DNA of 64,000 bases, from NCBI GenBank assembly GCA_039799905.1, contig JBDLRP010000021.1, forward strand, positions 192,001-256,000, given 5' to 3'. A model generated the notes under the pieces. The model was not told the DNA's origin. It worked only from the letters and a program-made list of their open reading frames with translations, and searched no databases. The DNA is from Pseudomonadota bacterium. GTDB lineage: Bacteria; Bdellovibrionota_B; Oligoflexia; Silvanigrellales; Silvanigrellaceae. The translations under genes and the position numbers were made by a program. Shown here piece by piece: positions 46,204-54,059 of this stretch (position 1 is the first letter of the stretch; every line of letters begins with the position of its first letter).

Positions 46204-47253
46204 TCAGGTTGACGAGCTGATACCTGCTGCCACCAGATCATGCAGGCGGAGCAAGCCAAGTGCCTTTCCGGATTCATTGATAATCGGCAGTGCATTGAGC
46301 GGACGGGGGCGGTTTTCCATCAACTGGAGTGCCTCAACCGCCAGCGTACCCGAGGGCAAAGTCACCGGCTTTGAATTCATGATGTCTGCGACAATGGCAT
46401 CAAAAACGGCCGGACCGCGTGCTTCCATGGCAGAGCGCAGATCACGCTCTGCGATAAAACCGATCAGCGAGTCTGTCTCGTCAACCACAAGCAAGGCGCC
46501 AAGAGCGCATTCTGTCATCCGCGAAACACAGCGCATAAAATTTTCGGACGGTGAAATGCGCGGAAGATAACGTCCGCCCACCATCAGATCATCCACACGC
46601 ACAAAAATTCGCTTACCGATGGCACCACCCGGATGATTCCGGGCATACGCTGAAATATCGAACAAGCGCCGCTCCATTGTTGCAGCAACCAACAATTGCC
46701 CGAGGGCAAGAGTGGTGACCGTGCTCGTCAGCGGAGCCTGCCCAAGCGGACAAGCCTCACCCTGAACCGGCATCTGCAAAACAACATCACAGTTTTGCGC
46801 CAGCGGTGAATCTGGACGAGCAGTGAAAGCGACAAGTTTGCAGCCTCGATCGCGCAACAGCGGAACAATTGCAAGCAGCTCGGCGCTGCGTCCGTTGTTG
46901 GAAATCATCAAGACCGGATCATTGCCGGCAACCGATCCCAAATCGCCATGCAGCGCTTCGGTAGGATGCAAAAAACGCGCCTGAATTCCGACACTGGCAA
47001 GCATCGAGACAAGCACTTGCGCAACGCCGCCGGACTTTCCGACAGCCACAAAATAAACCGTTTGGGTGTGGGCGGGTGATAATTTTGCAGGTTCATTCGT
47101 TTGCCTGATCCGACACCCGCAAATGAGTTCAACAACTTCGGAAAAGGCAGTTTGGAATGATTTTGAAGTGCTTAGCTGAATGCCCAATTGCTCAATACTG
47201 CGACTCATATGACCAGCACGCTGTGCAGCACTCACCAGTACATCGAGATCCAT
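46204..47253 (-). CDS. kdsD: KpsF/GutQ family arabinose-5-phosphate isomerase (SIS plus 2 CBS)
   Basis: GKSG, EALHGDLG, EACPLGQAP, HPGGAIGKR and a CBS pair. Confidence 0.88.
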   Translation of the reverse strand: MDLDVLVSAAQRAGHMSRSIEQLGIQLSTSKSFQTAFSEVVELICGCRIRQTNEPAKLSPAHTQTVYFVAVGKSGGVAQVLVSMLASVGIQARFLHPTEALHGDLGSVAGNDPVLMISNNGRSAELLAIVPLLRDRGCKLVAFTARPDSPLAQNCDVVLQMPVQGEACPLGQAPLTSTVTTLALGQLLVAATMERRLFDISAYARNHPGGAIGKRIFVRVDDLMVGGRYLPRISPSENFMRCVSRMTECALGALLVVDETDSLIGFIAERDLRSAMEARGPAVFDAIVADIMNSKPVTLPSGTLAVEALQLMENRPRPLNALPIINESGKALGLLRLHDLVAAGISSST

Positions 47254-47891
47254 CAGTGCACGTCCACCTTCACGGGCATGACAAATACACTTGCAGGAGA
47301 ACTCTCTTGTGCGCGCAGGTCCGACTCGCCTGCAACCGTATCTTCCGGATCCATTATCTGGCTACTTGGACGCAGAGGATCACGTCGTCTGCGGATCCGC
47401 TCGGCTCTCTTAGGCATCGCCTGAGAGTTGATCTCGTCGAGCATCTTGTTCGCTTCATCAAGCTGATCGTCCATCATATCGGGAGTCAAGTCGTCTATCT
47501 GCACACCGAACGCCTTTTCCACCGGACTCCCCATGTCGACACCGGCGAGGTCCTCGAGACTGCGCCACTGTGCCTCTTGAAGCGAGACAAGACGCTTTGA
47601 GAACTCCATCTGCCATGCAGCGAGTGCTTCTTGTCGTTCACAAAGTTCTTCCAAAACTCCATGAATCAGACTGAGCTGATCCTGAGTTTCGGCGAGCAGT
47701 CTCTTCAATTCCGATGGTGAAGTTTCTTTGATTGTGCGCCGTGGAGAATTTTTAAGAGGAAGTTCACGTGCGGCGTTCGCACCGGCGCGTCTGAGCGAAG
47801 CTGCAACCTGAGGCGAATCACCCGCAGGTTTTGCGGCACGCGAGCGGGCCTTGCTCTGACTCTCTGCTTTTCCTTTGCGAACTTCAGTCAT
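47253..47891 (-). CDS. Coiled-coil hypothetical protein, translationally coupled to kdsD
   Basis: TGATG overlap at 47253; heptad region. Confidence 0.65.
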   Translation of the reverse strand: MTEVRKGKAESQSKARSRAAKPAGDSPQVAASLRRAGANAARELPLKNSPRRTIKETSPSELKRLLAETQDQLSLIHGVLEELCERQEALAAWQMEFSKRLVSLQEAQWRSLEDLAGVDMGSPVEKAFGVQIDDLTPDMMDDQLDEANKMLDEINSQAMPKRAERIRRRRDPLRPSSQIMDPEDTVAGESDLRAQESSPASVFVMPVKVDVH

Positions 47892-47959
47892 TCAGCGGGA
47901 CTCCAAATGCAAAAAGACAATGCTCTCACACCATCCGAACCGACAGACCAAAGCGCAAA

Positions 47960-49021
47960 TCAGGCCTCAAGATGGGCGTCAACGACACCGTCCTTTGCCT
48001 CAGGCTGTGACATAGGTGGAGGATTCTTGTCAAAGAGAATGTTGCCGTTTTTGTTAATTGCCTCATGTTGATGCATTGCCTGCCAGAAGTTGGGATCAGG
48101 CATCACTCCCACCTCAAAGGGCGAGTTCTCGAACAGAGCCTGCTGGCCTTCAACGATGCCGTTCCTGATGTTCAGGCTGAAAGCCTGCATATCTTCGGGC
48201 GACTCTGTGAGTCCAGAAACCCGCAGGAAGATAGTGCGAATCCATCCATCTTGGCCCGCGTTCGGCGGCAGGATTGCACCTAAGACCGCAGCCTCTATGC
48301 TGGAGTTGGCTGCCAGAGCATCGGCTGCATGGGCACGCTGCTCCGCTGTAAAGACGTCCGGAGGGAAGGCAACCTGCATTTGACCGTCTCCACCGCCAGC
48401 CTCTGCGCCCTGTTCAGGATTGCCGGCCGCAATTTGAACCGGACTATTGGCGGTTTGAGGAACAATGCCCATGGCGAGTTGGCGGTATTCGACCTTGTTC
48501 AGAATAATGAAGGGGGCGCTGCCAGGGTTGACGACAATGACTTCGGCCGGACTCGGCTCGAGAAGTTTGAAGATGTCCTGCCCCTTGACGGACACATATT
48601 GACCGCCGTCAGGACGCCAGCGCCGTGCGGCAGCTCCGCTTGTGAATGCTGCGGCAAAGGGCGTCCCTGCTGAATTCTGAAGAATTGCGACGGTCATATT
48701 CTGACCATCTTCACCCGCCGCTGGTGCAGCGTTGGGATCCGGCTCGGCGAGTGCGAGGAGAAGCTCGGAGAAAAGTAATTCCTGATAAACTTTTCTGCGG
48801 CTGTCAGGGGTATCGTTACGTGCATTCTCGACCATGGCCAACTCAAGATACTCTGCTGCCTTGGGTTCACCTGATTCCTGACCAGATTCTTGTGCGGTAC
48901 TTGCTCCGACGTCGGAGTTTTGCGCCGGAACAGCCGACTGTGCCGTCGAGGCAGCAGCCGAGTTCGCTGGAGTTTTCGCCGATTCCGCTTCACGCTTGCC
49001 GAACAATTTCTTGAGAACCAT
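47960..49021 (-). CDS. SseB family protein
   Basis: YQELLFSELLL...AAAFTSGAAARRW...IVVNPGS, with a C-terminal SseB_C-like half; GAGG before ATG 49021. Confidence 0.75.
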   Translation of the reverse strand: MVLKKLFGKREAESAKTPANSAAASTAQSAVPAQNSDVGASTAQESGQESGEPKAAEYLELAMVENARNDTPDSRRKVYQELLFSELLLALAEPDPNAAPAAGEDGQNMTVAILQNSAGTPFAAAFTSGAAARRWRPDGGQYVSVKGQDIFKLLEPSPAEVIVVNPGSAPFIILNKVEYRQLAMGIVPQTANSPVQIAAGNPEQGAEAGGGDGQMQVAFPPDVFTAEQRAHAADALAANSSIEAAVLGAILPPNAGQDGWIRTIFLRVSGLTESPEDMQAFSLNIRNGIVEGQQALFENSPFEVGVMPDPNFWQAMHQHEAINKNGNILFDKNPPPMSQPEAKDGVVDAHLEA

Positions 49022-49119: not shown

Positions 49120-51852
49120 TCATCGATATTTTCTGCGCTTGGCTTCTCGCCAGAGCTCGTCCCAGACGTCCAGACTCAAGCCTTTTGCATACTCCTCAGT
49201 GACGTCAGCACCACGCTCGCGAAGAATGTTCTCCATTCCTTCAAATCGCGAAAGAAACTTGGCAACGCTCGCACGCACCGACAAATCAAAGTCGAGCTCA
49301 GACCCGTCCTTGAGATGCGTTTGATTGAGATAGACGACGACGTTGGTCAGCGCGAAAACGATGTCACCCAGTTCATCGGCAACCTTCTGCCAATCCGGCT
49401 TCTCGACGAAAAGCTCTCGCCGTAGTTCCTCAACTTCAGAAGTCAAATCCGCAAATGTTTGATCAAGAGTTTTCCATGCAAATCCAAGCTTCCACGAAGA
49501 TTTTGAAACGGCGGAAGAATAGCTCAACGTCGGTTGGGCATGCTTTTGGGCAGCCTTGTGGAGCAGCGATTTACTTTGCACCGGCCCATCTTTGTTCTCC
49601 GCCGACTTAATCACATCCCATTGCTTCACAACTTCACCCGCCGTGGTCAGCGTTCCGCTTTCAGGAGCAAAAACGTGCGGATGCCTGCGGATCATCTTTT
49701 CGATGATGCCCCTAAAAACGTCGGACACTTTAAAATGCATCTTCTCGGAAGCAATCTGCGAATTGAGATAAATCTGCAGCAGCACATCTCCGAGTTCGCC
49801 GCAGTAGTTGCGCGCCGATTTCTCATCGCCTTCTTTCGCATAAAGCGCGGCGGCTTCAACAGCCTCATAGGCCTCTTCAATCAGGTAAGATCGCAACGAT
49901 TCAATTGATTGCTCCTTGTCCCACGGACAGCCATCCGGCGCCCGCAGGGCGGCGACGGTCTTTGCAAACAACACTGAATTCAATGCGAGCGAGTACATCT
50001 CGCGGCCGGCATTCAACGTCAGCGGCTGGGCGAGCTTGTAATGCTGGGCAGGATCACCGGAATTTTTTTTTTGTGCCTCTGCCGACTCGCGGGAGATTTT
50101 TTTGTCGGAACCGCCCTGCACAAGATTGATGAGACTCGGCTCGTACTCCGACGGAGAGTCAAAACCTGCCAACTGAAAGATTGTTGCTGCTACGTTGGCA
50201 AGACCTGCTTTCGGCAAATCTTCACGCATTTCAAGAACGCACGGGAGAATTTCCGAATTAAAGATAGCAAATGGAACAGGCGACAGCGTGTGGCTGGTCT
50301 TTGCACGCGGCAATCCATTTTCGCCCATTTGGATTTGGCCGGTTTTTTTGTCTGCTTCAAACATCTCGTCCGCGTTGCCGTGGTCCGCTGTCACAACAAC
50401 GATCGTGTTGGTCTCGCGCGCAGCGGAAAGTATGCGACCCAATGCCAAATCGGCAGCTGCAACCGACAATAACGTGGCAGCAAAATCTCCGGTGTGACCA
50501 ACCATGTCGCCGTTGGCGAAATTGATTCGTCCGACACGGAATGAGTTTTTACGCATCTCGGCGATGGTGCGGTCGGCAATCTCGGCGGATTTCATCCACG
50601 GACGATCCGAAAATGAAGACATATCGGATGGAATTTCGACATAGTGCTCGAGTTCGTCGTTGAATTTTCCGCTGCGATTTCCATTCCAGAAATAGGTCAC
50701 ATGCCCATATTTTTGCGTCTCGCTGCAGGCAAATTGTCTGACTCCGGCGGAGGAAAATAGCTCACCCATCGTATTGCTGATTTGCGGTGGTTCGACCAGA
50801 TATATTTCGGGCAGCTTGAGGTCGCCGTCATATTGCATCATGCCTGCGTAAACTACGCTCGGAAATCTTTTTCGCGTGAATGCCGAAAAATTCTTTTCCG
50901 TCAGTGCCCGGCTTATTTGAATGGCGCGGTCACCGCGGAAATTGAAAAAAACAAAACTGTCACCATCATTCACTGCACCGATGGGTTTGCCATTGGTTCC
51001 AATCACAAACGGAGGAAGATTCTGGTCAGTTTTGAGCCCCTCGCTGCGGAATGTCTTCAACGCGTCATCGAGAGATGCAAACTCGCGCGCCTCGCCCAAA
51101 ACATGGGCGTTGTATCCGCGCTCGACTATCGACCAATCGCTGTCATAACGATCCATGGTGACAAACATTCTTCCGCCGCCACTGGCGACACGGCAATCGA
51201 ATTGAGTGTCGTTGACTGAGTCGAGAAACTCGCGCAATTGACCAGCGTAGATTTCAGCAGTGTCTGGACCGACATCGCGTCCGTCCAACAAAACATGCAG
51301 ACGCACCTGTCGCACGCCATCATTTTTTGCAGCACGAATCAGCGCAAACAAATGAGCAATGTGGCTGTGGACGTTGCCATCGGAAAGCAACCCGCAAAAA
51401 TGCAGGCAGGCGCTGCCGCTTTTGAGTTCCTGCCGGTGCACCGCCGACTGCCAGCCACGCCCTTCAAAAAGGCGACCACTTTCGATTGCGGCATTTACGA
51501 GTTTTGCGCCCTGCGCAAAGACGCGCCCAGCACCGAGGGCATTGTGACCGACCTCGCTGTTGCCCATATCGTCGGCAGACGGAAGTCCAACGCTGGGACC
51601 ATGTGCCAGGAGTGTCCTGCTCAGGGGTTGCTGCATCAGGCGCGTGAGGTGCGGTGTGTAAGCCGCGGCAACCGCATTGCCCGAAACAAAGGCAGCAGAG
51701 GGCAAAACCCCTGCGTGACGGTCGAGTTGCAGTGTGAGATTGTCTTGGGTGTCCTTCCAACCGACACCATCAAGAACCACGACAAGTACTTTGTGGTCGA
51801 TGCTGTTGTTCAGGATAGAATGACGCAGACCGGATGACATTTGGGTTGCCAT
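49120..51852 (-). CDS. gpmI: Fusion of cofactor-independent phosphoglycerate mutase (GpmI) and a two-domain MazG NTP pyrophosphohydrolase
   Basis: N-terminal VLDGVG, GNSEVGHN, DGRD, NFRGDR, DMVGHTG, TADHGN; C-terminal LRAPDGCPWD, EEAYE, ELGDVLLQ, RRHPHVF and a second ELGD; all one frame. Confidence 0.9.
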   Translation of the reverse strand: MATQMSSGLRHSILNNSIDHKVLVVVLDGVGWKDTQDNLTLQLDRHAGVLPSAAFVSGNAVAAAYTPHLTRLMQQPLSRTLLAHGPSVGLPSADDMGNSEVGHNALGAGRVFAQGAKLVNAAIESGRLFEGRGWQSAVHRQELKSGSACLHFCGLLSDGNVHSHIAHLFALIRAAKNDGVRQVRLHVLLDGRDVGPDTAEIYAGQLREFLDSVNDTQFDCRVASGGGRMFVTMDRYDSDWSIVERGYNAHVLGEAREFASLDDALKTFRSEGLKTDQNLPPFVIGTNGKPIGAVNDGDSFVFFNFRGDRAIQISRALTEKNFSAFTRKRFPSVVYAGMMQYDGDLKLPEIYLVEPPQISNTMGELFSSAGVRQFACSETQKYGHVTYFWNGNRSGKFNDELEHYVEIPSDMSSFSDRPWMKSAEIADRTIAEMRKNSFRVGRINFANGDMVGHTGDFAATLLSVAAADLALGRILSAARETNTIVVVTADHGNADEMFEADKKTGQIQMGENGLPRAKTSHTLSPVPFAIFNSEILPCVLEMREDLPKAGLANVAATIFQLAGFDSPSEYEPSLINLVQGGSDKKISRESAEAQKKNSGDPAQHYKLAQPLTLNAGREMYSLALNSVLFAKTVAALRAPDGCPWDKEQSIESLRSYLIEEAYEAVEAAALYAKEGDEKSARNYCGELGDVLLQIYLNSQIASEKMHFKVSDVFRGIIEKMIRRHPHVFAPESGTLTTAGEVVKQWDVIKSAENKDGPVQSKSLLHKAAQKHAQPTLSYSSAVSKSSWKLGFAWKTLDQTFADLTSEVEELRRELFVEKPDWQKVADELGDIVFALTNVVVYLNQTHLKDGSELDFDLSVRASVAKFLSRFEGMENILRERGADVTEEYAKGLSLDVWDELWREAKRRKYR

Positions 51853-51881
51853 ATTTGAACTTTCTTTGAATCGGGGCTTGC

Positions 51882-54059
51882 ATGCTTCAAAACGCTCATA
51901 CTCTGACATCGGCCGGCTTGCCGCGCAATCTGTTCGCAATGTTTGTGCTCATGGTCTGCACAGCATGTCTGCTGTCCGGAACTGTCAAATCGCAAACGGC
52001 ATTCGCCCAGACCGACCCGTTCCTCGTTCCCCTCAAATCTCTCAACAAGATTGATCCCGCCAACGTGGTTCAATTTAAAGTTGTCGCGTTAACAACAAAA
52101 GGCAATGCAGCGACTGCCGAAGTTGAAGTCAGCATTCGCGGCGGCTTCAAGATTTATGACAAGGGGCTGCGCTTCGAATACAAAAGTACTGCCACGCTCA
52201 ATGCGCTCATCCCTTTGACTTTCCAAGCCAATCCGCCTGCCAAGGTGATTCAAGATCCATTTTACAATGAGCCTCGGGCCGTGCACGAGAGTGCTGCACG
52301 CTTCGCACTCGCGAGCGATTTGCCCATGGAGGAAACTGGCACCCTGCGCGTCCGTTTCGAGGCTTGCTCGGTTAACACGTGTCTTTTGCCTGCATATTTC
52401 GTCATTCAGGCCCGCGTGGGTTCATCTTCACGCCCGGAGCCAAAAGGCGACACTGTGACAGGAGCATCCGGCTCAACGGGCAGCCTGAGTCCTCCCTCCA
52501 TGGAAAGTTCGACGCTCGCCTCCGGAAGTAGTGCAGCGTCTGCAGCACCCGCGATGCCCACGCCCGCAATCGAACAATCTCCCGCTCCATCCGCTCCTAC
52601 GCCCGCAGTTGAACTAACACCCAGCCAAGCAGCTCCCGCCTCCACGCCGGCACCTTCATTCCGCCCTGAAAAATCGGCCGATACTTCGCTTGCTGATTCA
52701 ATCACAGCGCAAGTGCAACGCAGCCTGGTTGAACGCAGCTGGTTGCTGTTTCCGGCGTTGTTTCTTGCCGGTCTGCTAATGAATCTGACGCCGTGTGTTT
52801 ATCCGATGATTCCCATCACACTGAACGTTCTCAGCCGCACGGCACCCGCAGATTCTACTGGCCAGCGCAGCCCGTCGCAGTCTGCCGTTCCGGCAATGAT
52901 GTACGTTTTGGGAATTATACTTGCCTATTCTGCAATGGGTGTTGTTGCGGGAATGACCGGCTCAATTTTTGGCAGTCTGCTGCAGAGCAAACTGGTCAAT
53001 GGTGTTCTGGCACTCACCATGTTTCTGCTGGGCCTTTCCATGCTGGATGTTTTTGATCTCAGCAAAATTCAAACAGCCGCCAACAGAATTCCTCTTTCAA
53101 AGAAGTCTCCCTACATGTCCGTTATCACCATGGGAGCAGTCTCGGGTCTGGTGGCCGCACCATGCACCGGGCCAGTTCTCAGCATGCTTCTTCTCTTAGT
53201 GGGACAAACAAAGGATCCCGTTTATGGGTTCGTGCTCATGAGCGTTTTTGCAGCTGGATTCGGAGCCCCTTATTTGGCTCTCGGACTGCTTTCGCAGCAG
53301 CTCAAGCGACTCCCCAAAGCTGGTTTTGCGATGAACATCGTCAAGAATGTATTTGCAGCCCTGATGTTCTCTTTGGCGCTGTATTATCTGAAACCGATGT
53401 TGCAAAACTTGGAGTTTGTCGCACTGCTCTATATCCGCCCGCCGGTAGTCGGTGTTGCTGCGGTCGTTATGCTCACTGTGGTATTTCTCGTTCTGCAGTC
53501 AAAGAAACCCACCAGCGCCCTGCGCACAATAGGACTGCAGACAGGCCTTTCGCTCCTCGCCCTGTGGATGGCGCTCTACCTGATTAAAGGCTTCATCGCT
53601 GGCGAAAAAACAGCTCTGCCTTCTCTGAGCCGAATCAATGATCCGCTCGAAATTCCAAATCCGCAGTCGCAGGAGACCGACGGCGTCCGCTGGATGAAAG
53701 ATTGGCAACAGGCTGTGCGCGCCGCGAAAGAACAAAACAAAGGGCTCATCGTGGATGCGTGGGCACAATGGTGTGCTGCGTGTCTGAAGATGGATGCCGA
53801 AGTCTGGAACGAGCCCGGAGTTGAGGCCCTCATCAATCAGCACTTCATTGCGCTTAAGATCGATTTCACAGAATCAAATCCGCAATCCGAGGAGCTCACC
53901 AAACGTTGGGATTTGTCGGGACTGCCGGCAGTGGGAATTTATCCGGCCGGTTCAGACTTTGCCGGACAACCGGTGGTCTTGTTCCGTGAAGCCGCCACAG
54001 TCAGCAGCTTCCATCAGGCGGTGCAGAAAATCTTCAACGGAGAGCTGCAGAAAAAATAA
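51882..54059 (+). CDS. dsbD: Thiol:disulfide interchange protein DsbD
   Basis: N-domain CSVNTC, TM cysteines TPCVYPMIP and APCTGP, thioredoxin WCAAC. The start could be 51939. Confidence 0.88.
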   Translation: MLQNAHTLTSAGLPRNLFAMFVLMVCTACLLSGTVKSQTAFAQTDPFLVPLKSLNKIDPANVVQFKVVALTTKGNAATAEVEVSIRGGFKIYDKGLRFEYKSTATLNALIPLTFQANPPAKVIQDPFYNEPRAVHESAARFALASDLPMEETGTLRVRFEACSVNTCLLPAYFVIQARVGSSSRPEPKGDTVTGASGSTGSLSPPSMESSTLASGSSAASAAPAMPTPAIEQSPAPSAPTPAVELTPSQAAPASTPAPSFRPEKSADTSLADSITAQVQRSLVERSWLLFPALFLAGLLMNLTPCVYPMIPITLNVLSRTAPADSTGQRSPSQSAVPAMMYVLGIILAYSAMGVVAGMTGSIFGSLLQSKLVNGVLALTMFLLGLSMLDVFDLSKIQTAANRIPLSKKSPYMSVITMGAVSGLVAAPCTGPVLSMLLLLVGQTKDPVYGFVLMSVFAAGFGAPYLALGLLSQQLKRLPKAGFAMNIVKNVFAALMFSLALYYLKPMLQNLEFVALLYIRPPVVGVAAVVMLTVVFLVLQSKKPTSALRTIGLQTGLSLLALWMALYLIKGFIAGEKTALPSLSRINDPLEIPNPQSQETDGVRWMKDWQQAVRAAKEQNKGLIVDAWAQWCAACLKMDAEVWNEPGVEALINQHFIALKIDFTESNPQSEELTKRWDLSGLPAVGIYPAGSDFAGQPVVLFREAATVSSFHQAVQKIFNGELQKK

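Follow-up and report, generated by a model that had tools for sequence, protein, structure and literature searches.

An apparently undescribed gpmI–mazG fusion, confined to one bacterial family, with a probable transcriptional slippage site in its linker

How many products does a gene make when it joins, in one reading frame, a complete phosphoglycerate mutase and a complete MazG pyrophosphohydrolase? The question is raised by an open reading frame (ORF) in a 64,000-nt stretch of DNA (positions 192,001 to 256,000, forward strand, of contig JBDLRP010000021.1, assembly GCA_039799905.1; hereafter the window) from a member of the Silvanigrellaceae, class Oligoflexia. A preliminary description, made from the letters alone, had recognised this ORF as an in-frame fusion of GpmI and MazG. 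We report that the gpmI–mazG fusion is family-wide and that a run of ten adenines (A10) in its linker likely makes RNA polymerase slip, which would yield both the 910-residue fusion and a free cofactor-independent phosphoglycerate mutase (iPGM) of ~599 residues.

Results

One reading frame holds both enzymes and an A10 run

The ORF lies on the minus strand at 49120–51852 (stop included; all features below are on the same strand) and runs from an ATG at 51852 to a stop at 49120 with no internal stop, encoding 910 residues (P0001). Its iPGM domain, of the trypanosomatid-like type, occupies aa 21–577 (50122–51792) and matches TIGR01307 over residues 21–571 with 383.4 bits against a cut-off of 330.65 (profile positions 2–499 of 504); the best PDB matches are 3NVL and 3IGY. 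The two-domain MazG occupies aa 613–910 (49123–50016). It matches TIGR00444 over residues 633–905 with 185.4 bits against a cut-off of 148.3, and Escherichia coli MazG (3CRA) by both sequence and fold; the stricter MazG equivalog NF007113 was not reached (193.9 versus 208). Pfam domains in the ORF are iPGM_N, Metalloenzyme and MazG, with two PF03819 matches in the MazG frame. The preliminary description was therefore right to see a complete iPGM and a two-domain MazG in a single uninterrupted ORF, and its further observations of two ELGD motifs (residues 686–689, at 49786–49797, and 827–830, at 49363–49374) and of a linker of about 50 residues, the distance that separates the two family matches, also stand.

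The linker proper (aa 578–612, 50017–50121) is poorly conserved in the alignment. In the AlphaFold model (mean predicted local distance difference test, pLDDT, of 80), two folded parts flank a low-confidence stretch at aa 581–598 (pLDDT <50), which is predicted to be disordered, and the first MazG helix begins at residue 613. What the preliminary description missed is the A10 run on the coding strand of this linker (50063–50072), which is the conspicuous feature when relatives are compared. The run is read as the codons Q-K-K-N and is a candidate RNA-polymerase slippage site. As computed, one additional A (+1 A) leads to an out-of-frame TGA (50054–50056) that would close a 599-residue free iPGM ending in QKKKFR, and the loss of one A (−1 A) leads to a product of 610 residues. 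A second run in the linker (A7, 50097–50103) is shorter than the usual 9-nt threshold.

A homopolymer at the junction is where an assembly or sequencing artefact could have created the fusion. However, independent contigs of five runs (X4, X6, X9, X7 and X11), none of them among the three flagged as possible sources, cross the linker with no gaps, so the frame in the window is not an assembly slip, and the same in-frame architecture is found in 21 genomes and in more than 40 protein clusters. An artefact is thus already refuted, its likelihood being negligible, and we regard the reality of the fusion as practically certain. Support at the junction comes from assembled contigs; those of X14, X18 and the RNA run X19 leave the A-run uncovered. 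Within the window's genome the full 910-residue protein has a single match, and elsewhere in that genome there are two histidine-phosphatase-family matches and one weak, small MazG-like match.

An internal MazG start at Met619 (ATG at 49998) was considered and rejected: as the preliminary description had stated, there is no clear Shine–Dalgarno sequence before it (none by eye in the preceding 16 nt), and the methionine is not conserved.

Eight relatives carry mazG out of frame

Junctions were compared among 33 genomes of the family. A MazG was present in 32 of them and junction DNA was readable in 29; those left out were G008 (contig break), G018 (another N-terminal domain), G046 (C-domain of MazG only) and G021 (no mazG found). 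Twenty-one of the junctions are in-frame fusions and eight are shifted (G017, G022, G024, G041, G042, G043, G045 and G048; seven of these belong to genus g5), and the linker measures 101–171 nt across the 29 genomes. As read directly from the DNA, gpmI ends in all eight shifted genomes in a run of A9–A11 with a stop 0–3 codons further on, mazG follows in the −1 frame, and exactly +1 A restores the fusion. The shifted MazG frames contain no stops and keep all metal ligands. In all eight, the MazG frame ahead of the GCPWD motif is devoid of ATG and GTG, and in four of them of TTG as well. The ratio of nonsynonymous to synonymous substitution (dN/dS) of MazG was 0.15–0.19 in four shifted–shifted pairs, compared with 0.02–0.06 in fused pairs of the window's genus; by these values, MazG in the shifted genomes is clearly under purifying selection, with weaker constraint than in the fused pairs.

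Separate genes in relatives, with a stop or indel at the junction, were what the preliminary description had thought would speak against a fusion. The window's own species shows nothing of the kind, and the eight split-looking relatives show it in form only: they are frameshift-joined, not separate genes. That recoding operates in them is, in our judgement, likely.

The short ending is not a peculiarity of a few assemblies. Short iPGM forms were found repeatedly in NCBI, ENA, JGI and Logan records and, among full-length members, make up all of cluster 1 (5/5), cluster 2 (2/2) and cluster 4 (4/4) and seven of the nine in cluster 6, where the other two are fused; the six contigs of cluster 7 are all short, and cluster 3, to which G041 belongs, holds one short member and seven fused members of 901 residues. 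In one diverged clade, all eight clusters end KK(N/S/K) at the same place, with downstream DNA available from G017 only. Named species are found on both sides (P0122, P0128, P0143 and P0145 short; P0031 and P0154 fused), and one shifted record (P0134) has a 296-residue MazG annotated from an internal position. Near-identical sisters stand in opposite phase on the RpoB tree (a quick version with 27 of the 33 genomes), namely G043 versus G023 and G022 versus G047, and at least eight changes of state are needed on the iPGM tree (FastTree, with 38 of 96 inner branches open and the ancestral state inferred).

Such flips might also be expected of a DNA-level contingency locus, at which replication slippage would toggle MazG in subpopulations and the shifted genomes would represent the off state. 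The opposite phases of close sisters, the presence of both forms in clusters 3 and 6 and the number of state changes would all suit such a locus, and runs of this kind are also hypermutable in replication according to PMC1088944. However, all eight shifted genomes are in the same phase and none needs −1 A, the short ending is kept by a whole diverged clade, MazG is under purifying selection between shifted genomes, and no length variant was seen in five contig sets of the window's species (contigs drop rare variants). Because all eight share one phase and selection on MazG persists, we favour polymerase slippage over phase variation, which we consider quite improbable.

Runs of nine or more adenines are placed in the linker, next to stops

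We then considered where long A-runs are placed. Runs of at least nine A number 14 in 3,955 nt of linker DNA; the domain-coding parts of these genes, 73,139 nt in all, have none. They are present in 14 of the 29 genomes, comprising all eight shifted ones (A9–A11) and 6 of the 21 in-frame ones (A9–A12; Fisher p = 0.0007, too strong a value, since related genomes do not count as independent). Among 12 loci (G000 and G003 being set aside), which are likewise not independent of one another, 11 have a stop 0–1 codon past the run in the frame that is one A short of the fusion, compared with a background of 0.05–0.19 per position. In four in-frame genomes (G010, G014, G023 and G047) the stop stands directly past the run, in the same register as in the shifted genomes (background 0.02–0.10 per position). 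Nine nucleotides is the threshold for slippage given in PMC1088944 and PMC5009743, and the run lengths of the family match it.

In principle, −1 ribosomal frameshifting at A_AAA_AAG or A_AAA_AAA could also give two products, and all eight shifted junctions do need the −1 frame and do have an in-phase A_AAA_AAA, with A_AAA_AAG in three. For such a heptamer 6–7 A's would suffice, whereas all eight junctions have 9–11; the base 3' of the run varies among the shifted loci (G, T or C); and neither a conserved upstream Shine–Dalgarno sequence (25 nt) nor a stable downstream hairpin was found in the seven shifted loci other than G042 (minimum free energy −1.7 to −10 kcal/mol over 60 nt). Polymerase slippage is favoured over ribosomal shifting because the runs of the shifted genomes are always of at least nine, the base after them differs between loci and no conserved stimulator was seen in these flanks; the ribosomal explanation strikes us as very improbable.

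The window's own gene and a parallel in dnaX

Does slippage also occur where the default frame is the fusion, as in the window? Coding-strand A10 runs are found only three times in 1,556 long ORFs of the window genome (G000), and two of them are in dnaX and the gpmI–mazG linker. (The third is at codon 150 of a 383-residue ORF, G000:C32:46558-47707, L257.) Coding runs of at least nine A are under-used in this genome, numbering 10 compared with 35.8 ± 4.7 after codon shuffling. The dnaX gene, which lies outside the window (G000:C3:51283-53284, minus strand; L256, L279), has a TGA just after its A10, at about codon 603 of 667. Among 27 parsed dnaX genes of the family, 14 contain a run of at least nine A, and in 12 of these +1 A brings a stop at once. 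All 11 genomes of the window's genus have A9–A10 in dnaX, and in 10 of them the added A meets a stop immediately. The dnaX of G012 is in the opposite phase. This run is a candidate Thermus-type tau/gamma slippage site.

For the window's species, the alternative is a plain neutral operon fusion with one product, in which the A10 would be a by-product of a lysine-rich, indel-tolerant linker even if some relatives recode. Several observations suit this alternative and weigh against slippage. A run of at least nine A is absent from 15 of the 21 in-frame genomes, including 9 of the 12 in the window's genus, so a free iPGM is not required everywhere. An A10 occurs in 3 of the 20 [QE]KK[NK] motifs of the window proteome (~15%), about the codon-use expectation, and is thus not rare given Q-K-K-N; and an ancestral adjacent operon would ease fusion. 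To the same side of the scale belong the nearest out-of-frame stop in the window, which at two codons past the run is unremarkable alone, and the dnaX of genus g5, which is without such a run (0/11 parsed). In the shifted genomes, ATT, ATA or ATC is present in the first helix in 8 of 8, this conserved Ile codon being the sole near-cognate start that they share, and it may act as one. The shifted state of G041 may be an error, an assembly slip or a polymorphism, because the seven other members of its cluster are 901-residue fusions. The two pieces covered by the RNA run X19 (0.13 share) both lie off the junction, and no transcript or peptide was seen. Lastly, the rationale of dosage, set out below, is one that we infer.

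Against neutral fusion, the sister species keeps an A9 at the window's site, and A9–A10 is found at a similar place in G010, G008 and L032 (within the window's genus, the run is present in 3 of 12, plus G008 and L032). The dnaX of the window genome has a conserved A10-TGA, and slippage on at least nine A's needs no added signal in the systems described in PMC1088944 and PMC5009743. On this evidence we hold a purely neutral fusion to be unlikely, and we lean towards appreciable slippage in the window's own gene, which by its sequence is a candidate member of the programmed transcriptional-slippage class.

The fusion is confined to one family and best explained by an older operon

The fusion was found in one family of freshwater bacteria only, its homologues being named Silvanigrellaceae, Silvanigrellales or Fluviispira. 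Across 104 genomes of the class, none of the matches listed from outside the family (all but 27 weaker ones) crosses both halves without a stop. In other families of Oligoflexia, 20 of 20 picked junctions consist of two adjacent genes, with mazG starting at an ATG or TTG of its own that in many cases overlaps the gpmI stop, and eight further junctions outside the family are likewise two self-started genes. Six of the 20, from class genomes with long open frames, were examined as possible fusions and rejected, all being two genes with a stop and an own start. A profile search of 1.84 billion representatives returned, among the best 150 matches, one full-length protein spanning both halves and two fragments; a metagenome locus scan gave four usable junctions from 80 loci, and a scan of genome contigs gave mostly unrelated iPGMs. 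Because outside families keep gpmI and mazG adjacent as two self-started genes, the fusion is best explained, as far as sequence comparison goes, as an older gpmI–mazG operon that became fixed as one gene. Most deep lineages of the family are fused on the iPGM tree, and this fast tree suggests one early fusion in the family.

The protein clusters comprise 48 that are fused, 19 that end in a KK run, 14 that are short without a run and 7 that are long without the N-domain motif. Several lineages have departed from the common architecture. In G018 (L198, G018:C755; proteins P0044–P0047 and P0049–P0052), MazG lies at the locus of the fusion, between dsbD and an SseB-like gene, but bears in place of the iPGM an N-terminal domain of ~230 residues with no precomputed Pfam match. 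In G046 (L199, G046:C138), P0163, P0168, P0170, P0173 and P0175, the iPGM is joined to the C-terminal MazG domain only (~730 residues), with the acidic ligands kept. The activity of E. coli MazG reportedly resides only in its C-domain, and these C-domain-only fusions would fit that view. In G021 (L024, G021:C16; 1.8 Mb), an SseB-like gene directly follows the iPGM and no mazG was found in the 94%-complete genome; together with P0178–P0180, P0183–P0186 and P0189 it forms a lineage whose iPGM ending lacks the K-run. One further protein (P0116, 541 aa, on a single 4.3-kb contig) has MazG followed by an enolase C-terminal domain and may be a chimera.

Both enzymes look intact, and coupling between them is improbable

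Judged by score and core ligands, the protein belongs to both the iPGM and the MazG families, and from the conservation of their sites both enzymes look intact. In the iPGM half, Ser99 aligns with Ser62 of 1EJJ (1O99 is the S62A mutant), and D28, H162, R192, D193, R228, R235, R306, R309, K381, D449, H453, D490, H491 and H521, which we take to be metal and substrate motifs, do not vary in any of the 26 fusions aligned; a literature search on the roles of these residues found nothing. Among solved structures, this half is closest to trypanosomatid enzymes (~547 bits, versus ~300 bits for the Bacillus type), and such an iPGM is present class-wide. Like the enzymes of Trypanosoma and Leishmania (3NVL and 3IGY), to which it is 46–47% identical in a fold alignment and with which it shares TIGR01307, it has an invariant catalytic serine and invariant metal and substrate motifs; unlike them, it bears a C-terminal MazG in its default product.

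In the MazG half, E659, E660, E663, E686 and D689, which form the first acidic site, and E806, E809, D826, E827, D830, K865, R869 and W901 are invariant in the same 26 fusions. By alignment to 3CRA, E806, E827 and D830 correspond to E172, E193 and D196, the Mg ligands of E. coli MazG (as given in PMC10014863). As in E. coli MazG, there are tandem all-alpha domains, and the equivalents of E172, E175, E193 and D196 are present. Of the six acids in the E. coli site (E171, E172, E175, E192, E193 and D196), five are acidic in the fusion; the position of E171 is Ser805. Because this position is Ser or Ala in all aligned stand-alone MazGs of other Oligoflexia, Ser805 predates the fusion and was not caused by it. 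Three residues earlier, Asp802 (49447–49449) replaces the Lys of E. coli MazG; it is Asp in all aligned rows of the family, compared with Gln, Lys, His or Val in other Oligoflexia, and may change the substrate preference of MazG. MazGs with N-terminal modules are known, such as YabN (NF052436), but here the N-terminal partner is a whole iPGM.

From the fusion, the preliminary description had proposed that flux between 3-phosphoglycerate and 2-phosphoglycerate could be coupled to control of the nucleoside triphosphate (NTP) pool. In favour of such physical or allosteric coupling, the gene pair is adjacent across most of the class, both active sites are retained and Asp802 sets the family apart. 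However, Asp802 is also present in MazGs that are not fused to an iPGM (P0044, P0045 and P0047), iPGM and MazG share no substrate, and the linker is variable and predicted to be disordered. Because the linker is unconstrained and, within the family, MazG has been lost, truncated or given another partner, metabolite coupling is not borne out, and we rate it as the least credible of the functional explanations. A complex prediction for the iPGM half and the MazG half, with a score of 0.24 against a mark of 0.32, gave no verdict and is given no weight here. A literature search on the toxicity of MazG brought nothing usable.

Genes around the fusion

Downstream of the fusion, co-oriented genes at 46204–49021 encode an SseB-domain protein, a hypothetical protein and a KpsF/GutQ isomerase; SseB and KpsF genes are also downstream in G008, G018 and G021. 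On the other side is a divergent dsbD-like ORF, the first ATG of which lies 29 nt from the gpmI ATG (51852–51882) and the true start of which is probably further downstream. A promoter and terminator scan was uninformative (4 promoter-like sites versus 2.9 ± 1.9; 14 terminator-like sites versus 8.1 ± 3.1).

Discussion

Overall, the frame relations at 29 junctions, the selection acting on the out-of-frame MazG and the placement of long A-runs in the linker lead us to propose the following as the most probable reading. In the ancestor of the family, the stop of gpmI and the start of mazG would have disappeared, and RNA polymerase would add A's at the run, as it is known to do on runs of at least nine A's. 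In relatives in which the default frame ends at the iPGM, +1 A transcripts would be the source of MazG; in the window's species, in which the default is the fusion, +1 A transcripts would give free iPGM. The two enzymes would work independently on a flexible tether, and the likely point of the arrangement would be dosage, with a bulk glycolytic/gluconeogenic enzyme on one side and an NTP pyrophosphohydrolase on the other.

Three known systems resemble parts of this proposal. Fusion of pgk and tim was reportedly found in Thermotoga maritima, as Schurig et al. are said to have described in 1995. As in that case, which PMC4256274 attributes to transcriptional frameshifting, the 3' end of a glycolytic gene is here joined to the next gene by a change of frame, giving a bifunctional chimera; in contrast, both partners of pgk–tim are glycolytic, whereas in the present fusion the glycolytic enzyme is paired with a house-cleaning NTP pyrophosphohydrolase, and the default frame switches repeatedly from species to species. 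In tssM1 of Citrobacter rodentium (A11) and tssM3 of Yersinia pseudotuberculosis (A9), +1 slippage of about 15–25% gives long and short forms, according to PMC4256274. There too a poly-A run has a nearby stop, and the orthologues differ in their default, short in one and long in the other, like G043 and G023; but the two tssM products are a longer and a shorter version of a single protein, not two enzymes, and slippage was shown by experiment there and is proposed here. The third is the tau/gamma slippage of Thermus thermophilus dnaX at a 9-nt run, in which, according to PMC1088944 and PMC5009743, an in-frame long product is accompanied by short products made through extra A's and nearby stops. 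This is the configuration of the window, although Thermus dnaX truncates one subunit and releases no enzyme from a two-gene fusion.

The preliminary description knew of no characterised case of this architecture, and no published description of an iPGM–MazG fusion or of such a slippage site was found in a literature search that left most subscription papers and the supplements of recoding surveys outside its reach. The fusion is thus apparently undescribed, restricted to the family and equipped with a probable slippage site. In annotation it falls into a blind spot, fused forms being named phosphoglycerate mutase only. According to the reviews searched, few chromosomal housekeeping genes have productive transcriptional slippage (dnaX, pgk–tim and tssM), the largest class being insertion sequence elements; to these the present candidate would add a case that joins two unrelated enzymes and is found in both phases among close relatives. 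Should the fusion hold but not the slippage, it would be a lineage-specific operon fusion of modest interest.

With about even chances of being right, the picture may be extended to the family as a whole: some species would obtain MazG, and others free iPGM, through slippage alone, the default frame would have flipped many times, the A-run would act as an evolvable dial of the MazG-to-iPGM ratio, and the same family would slip at dnaX as well. If this is true, the family would lend itself naturally to comparative study of productive slippage in housekeeping genes.

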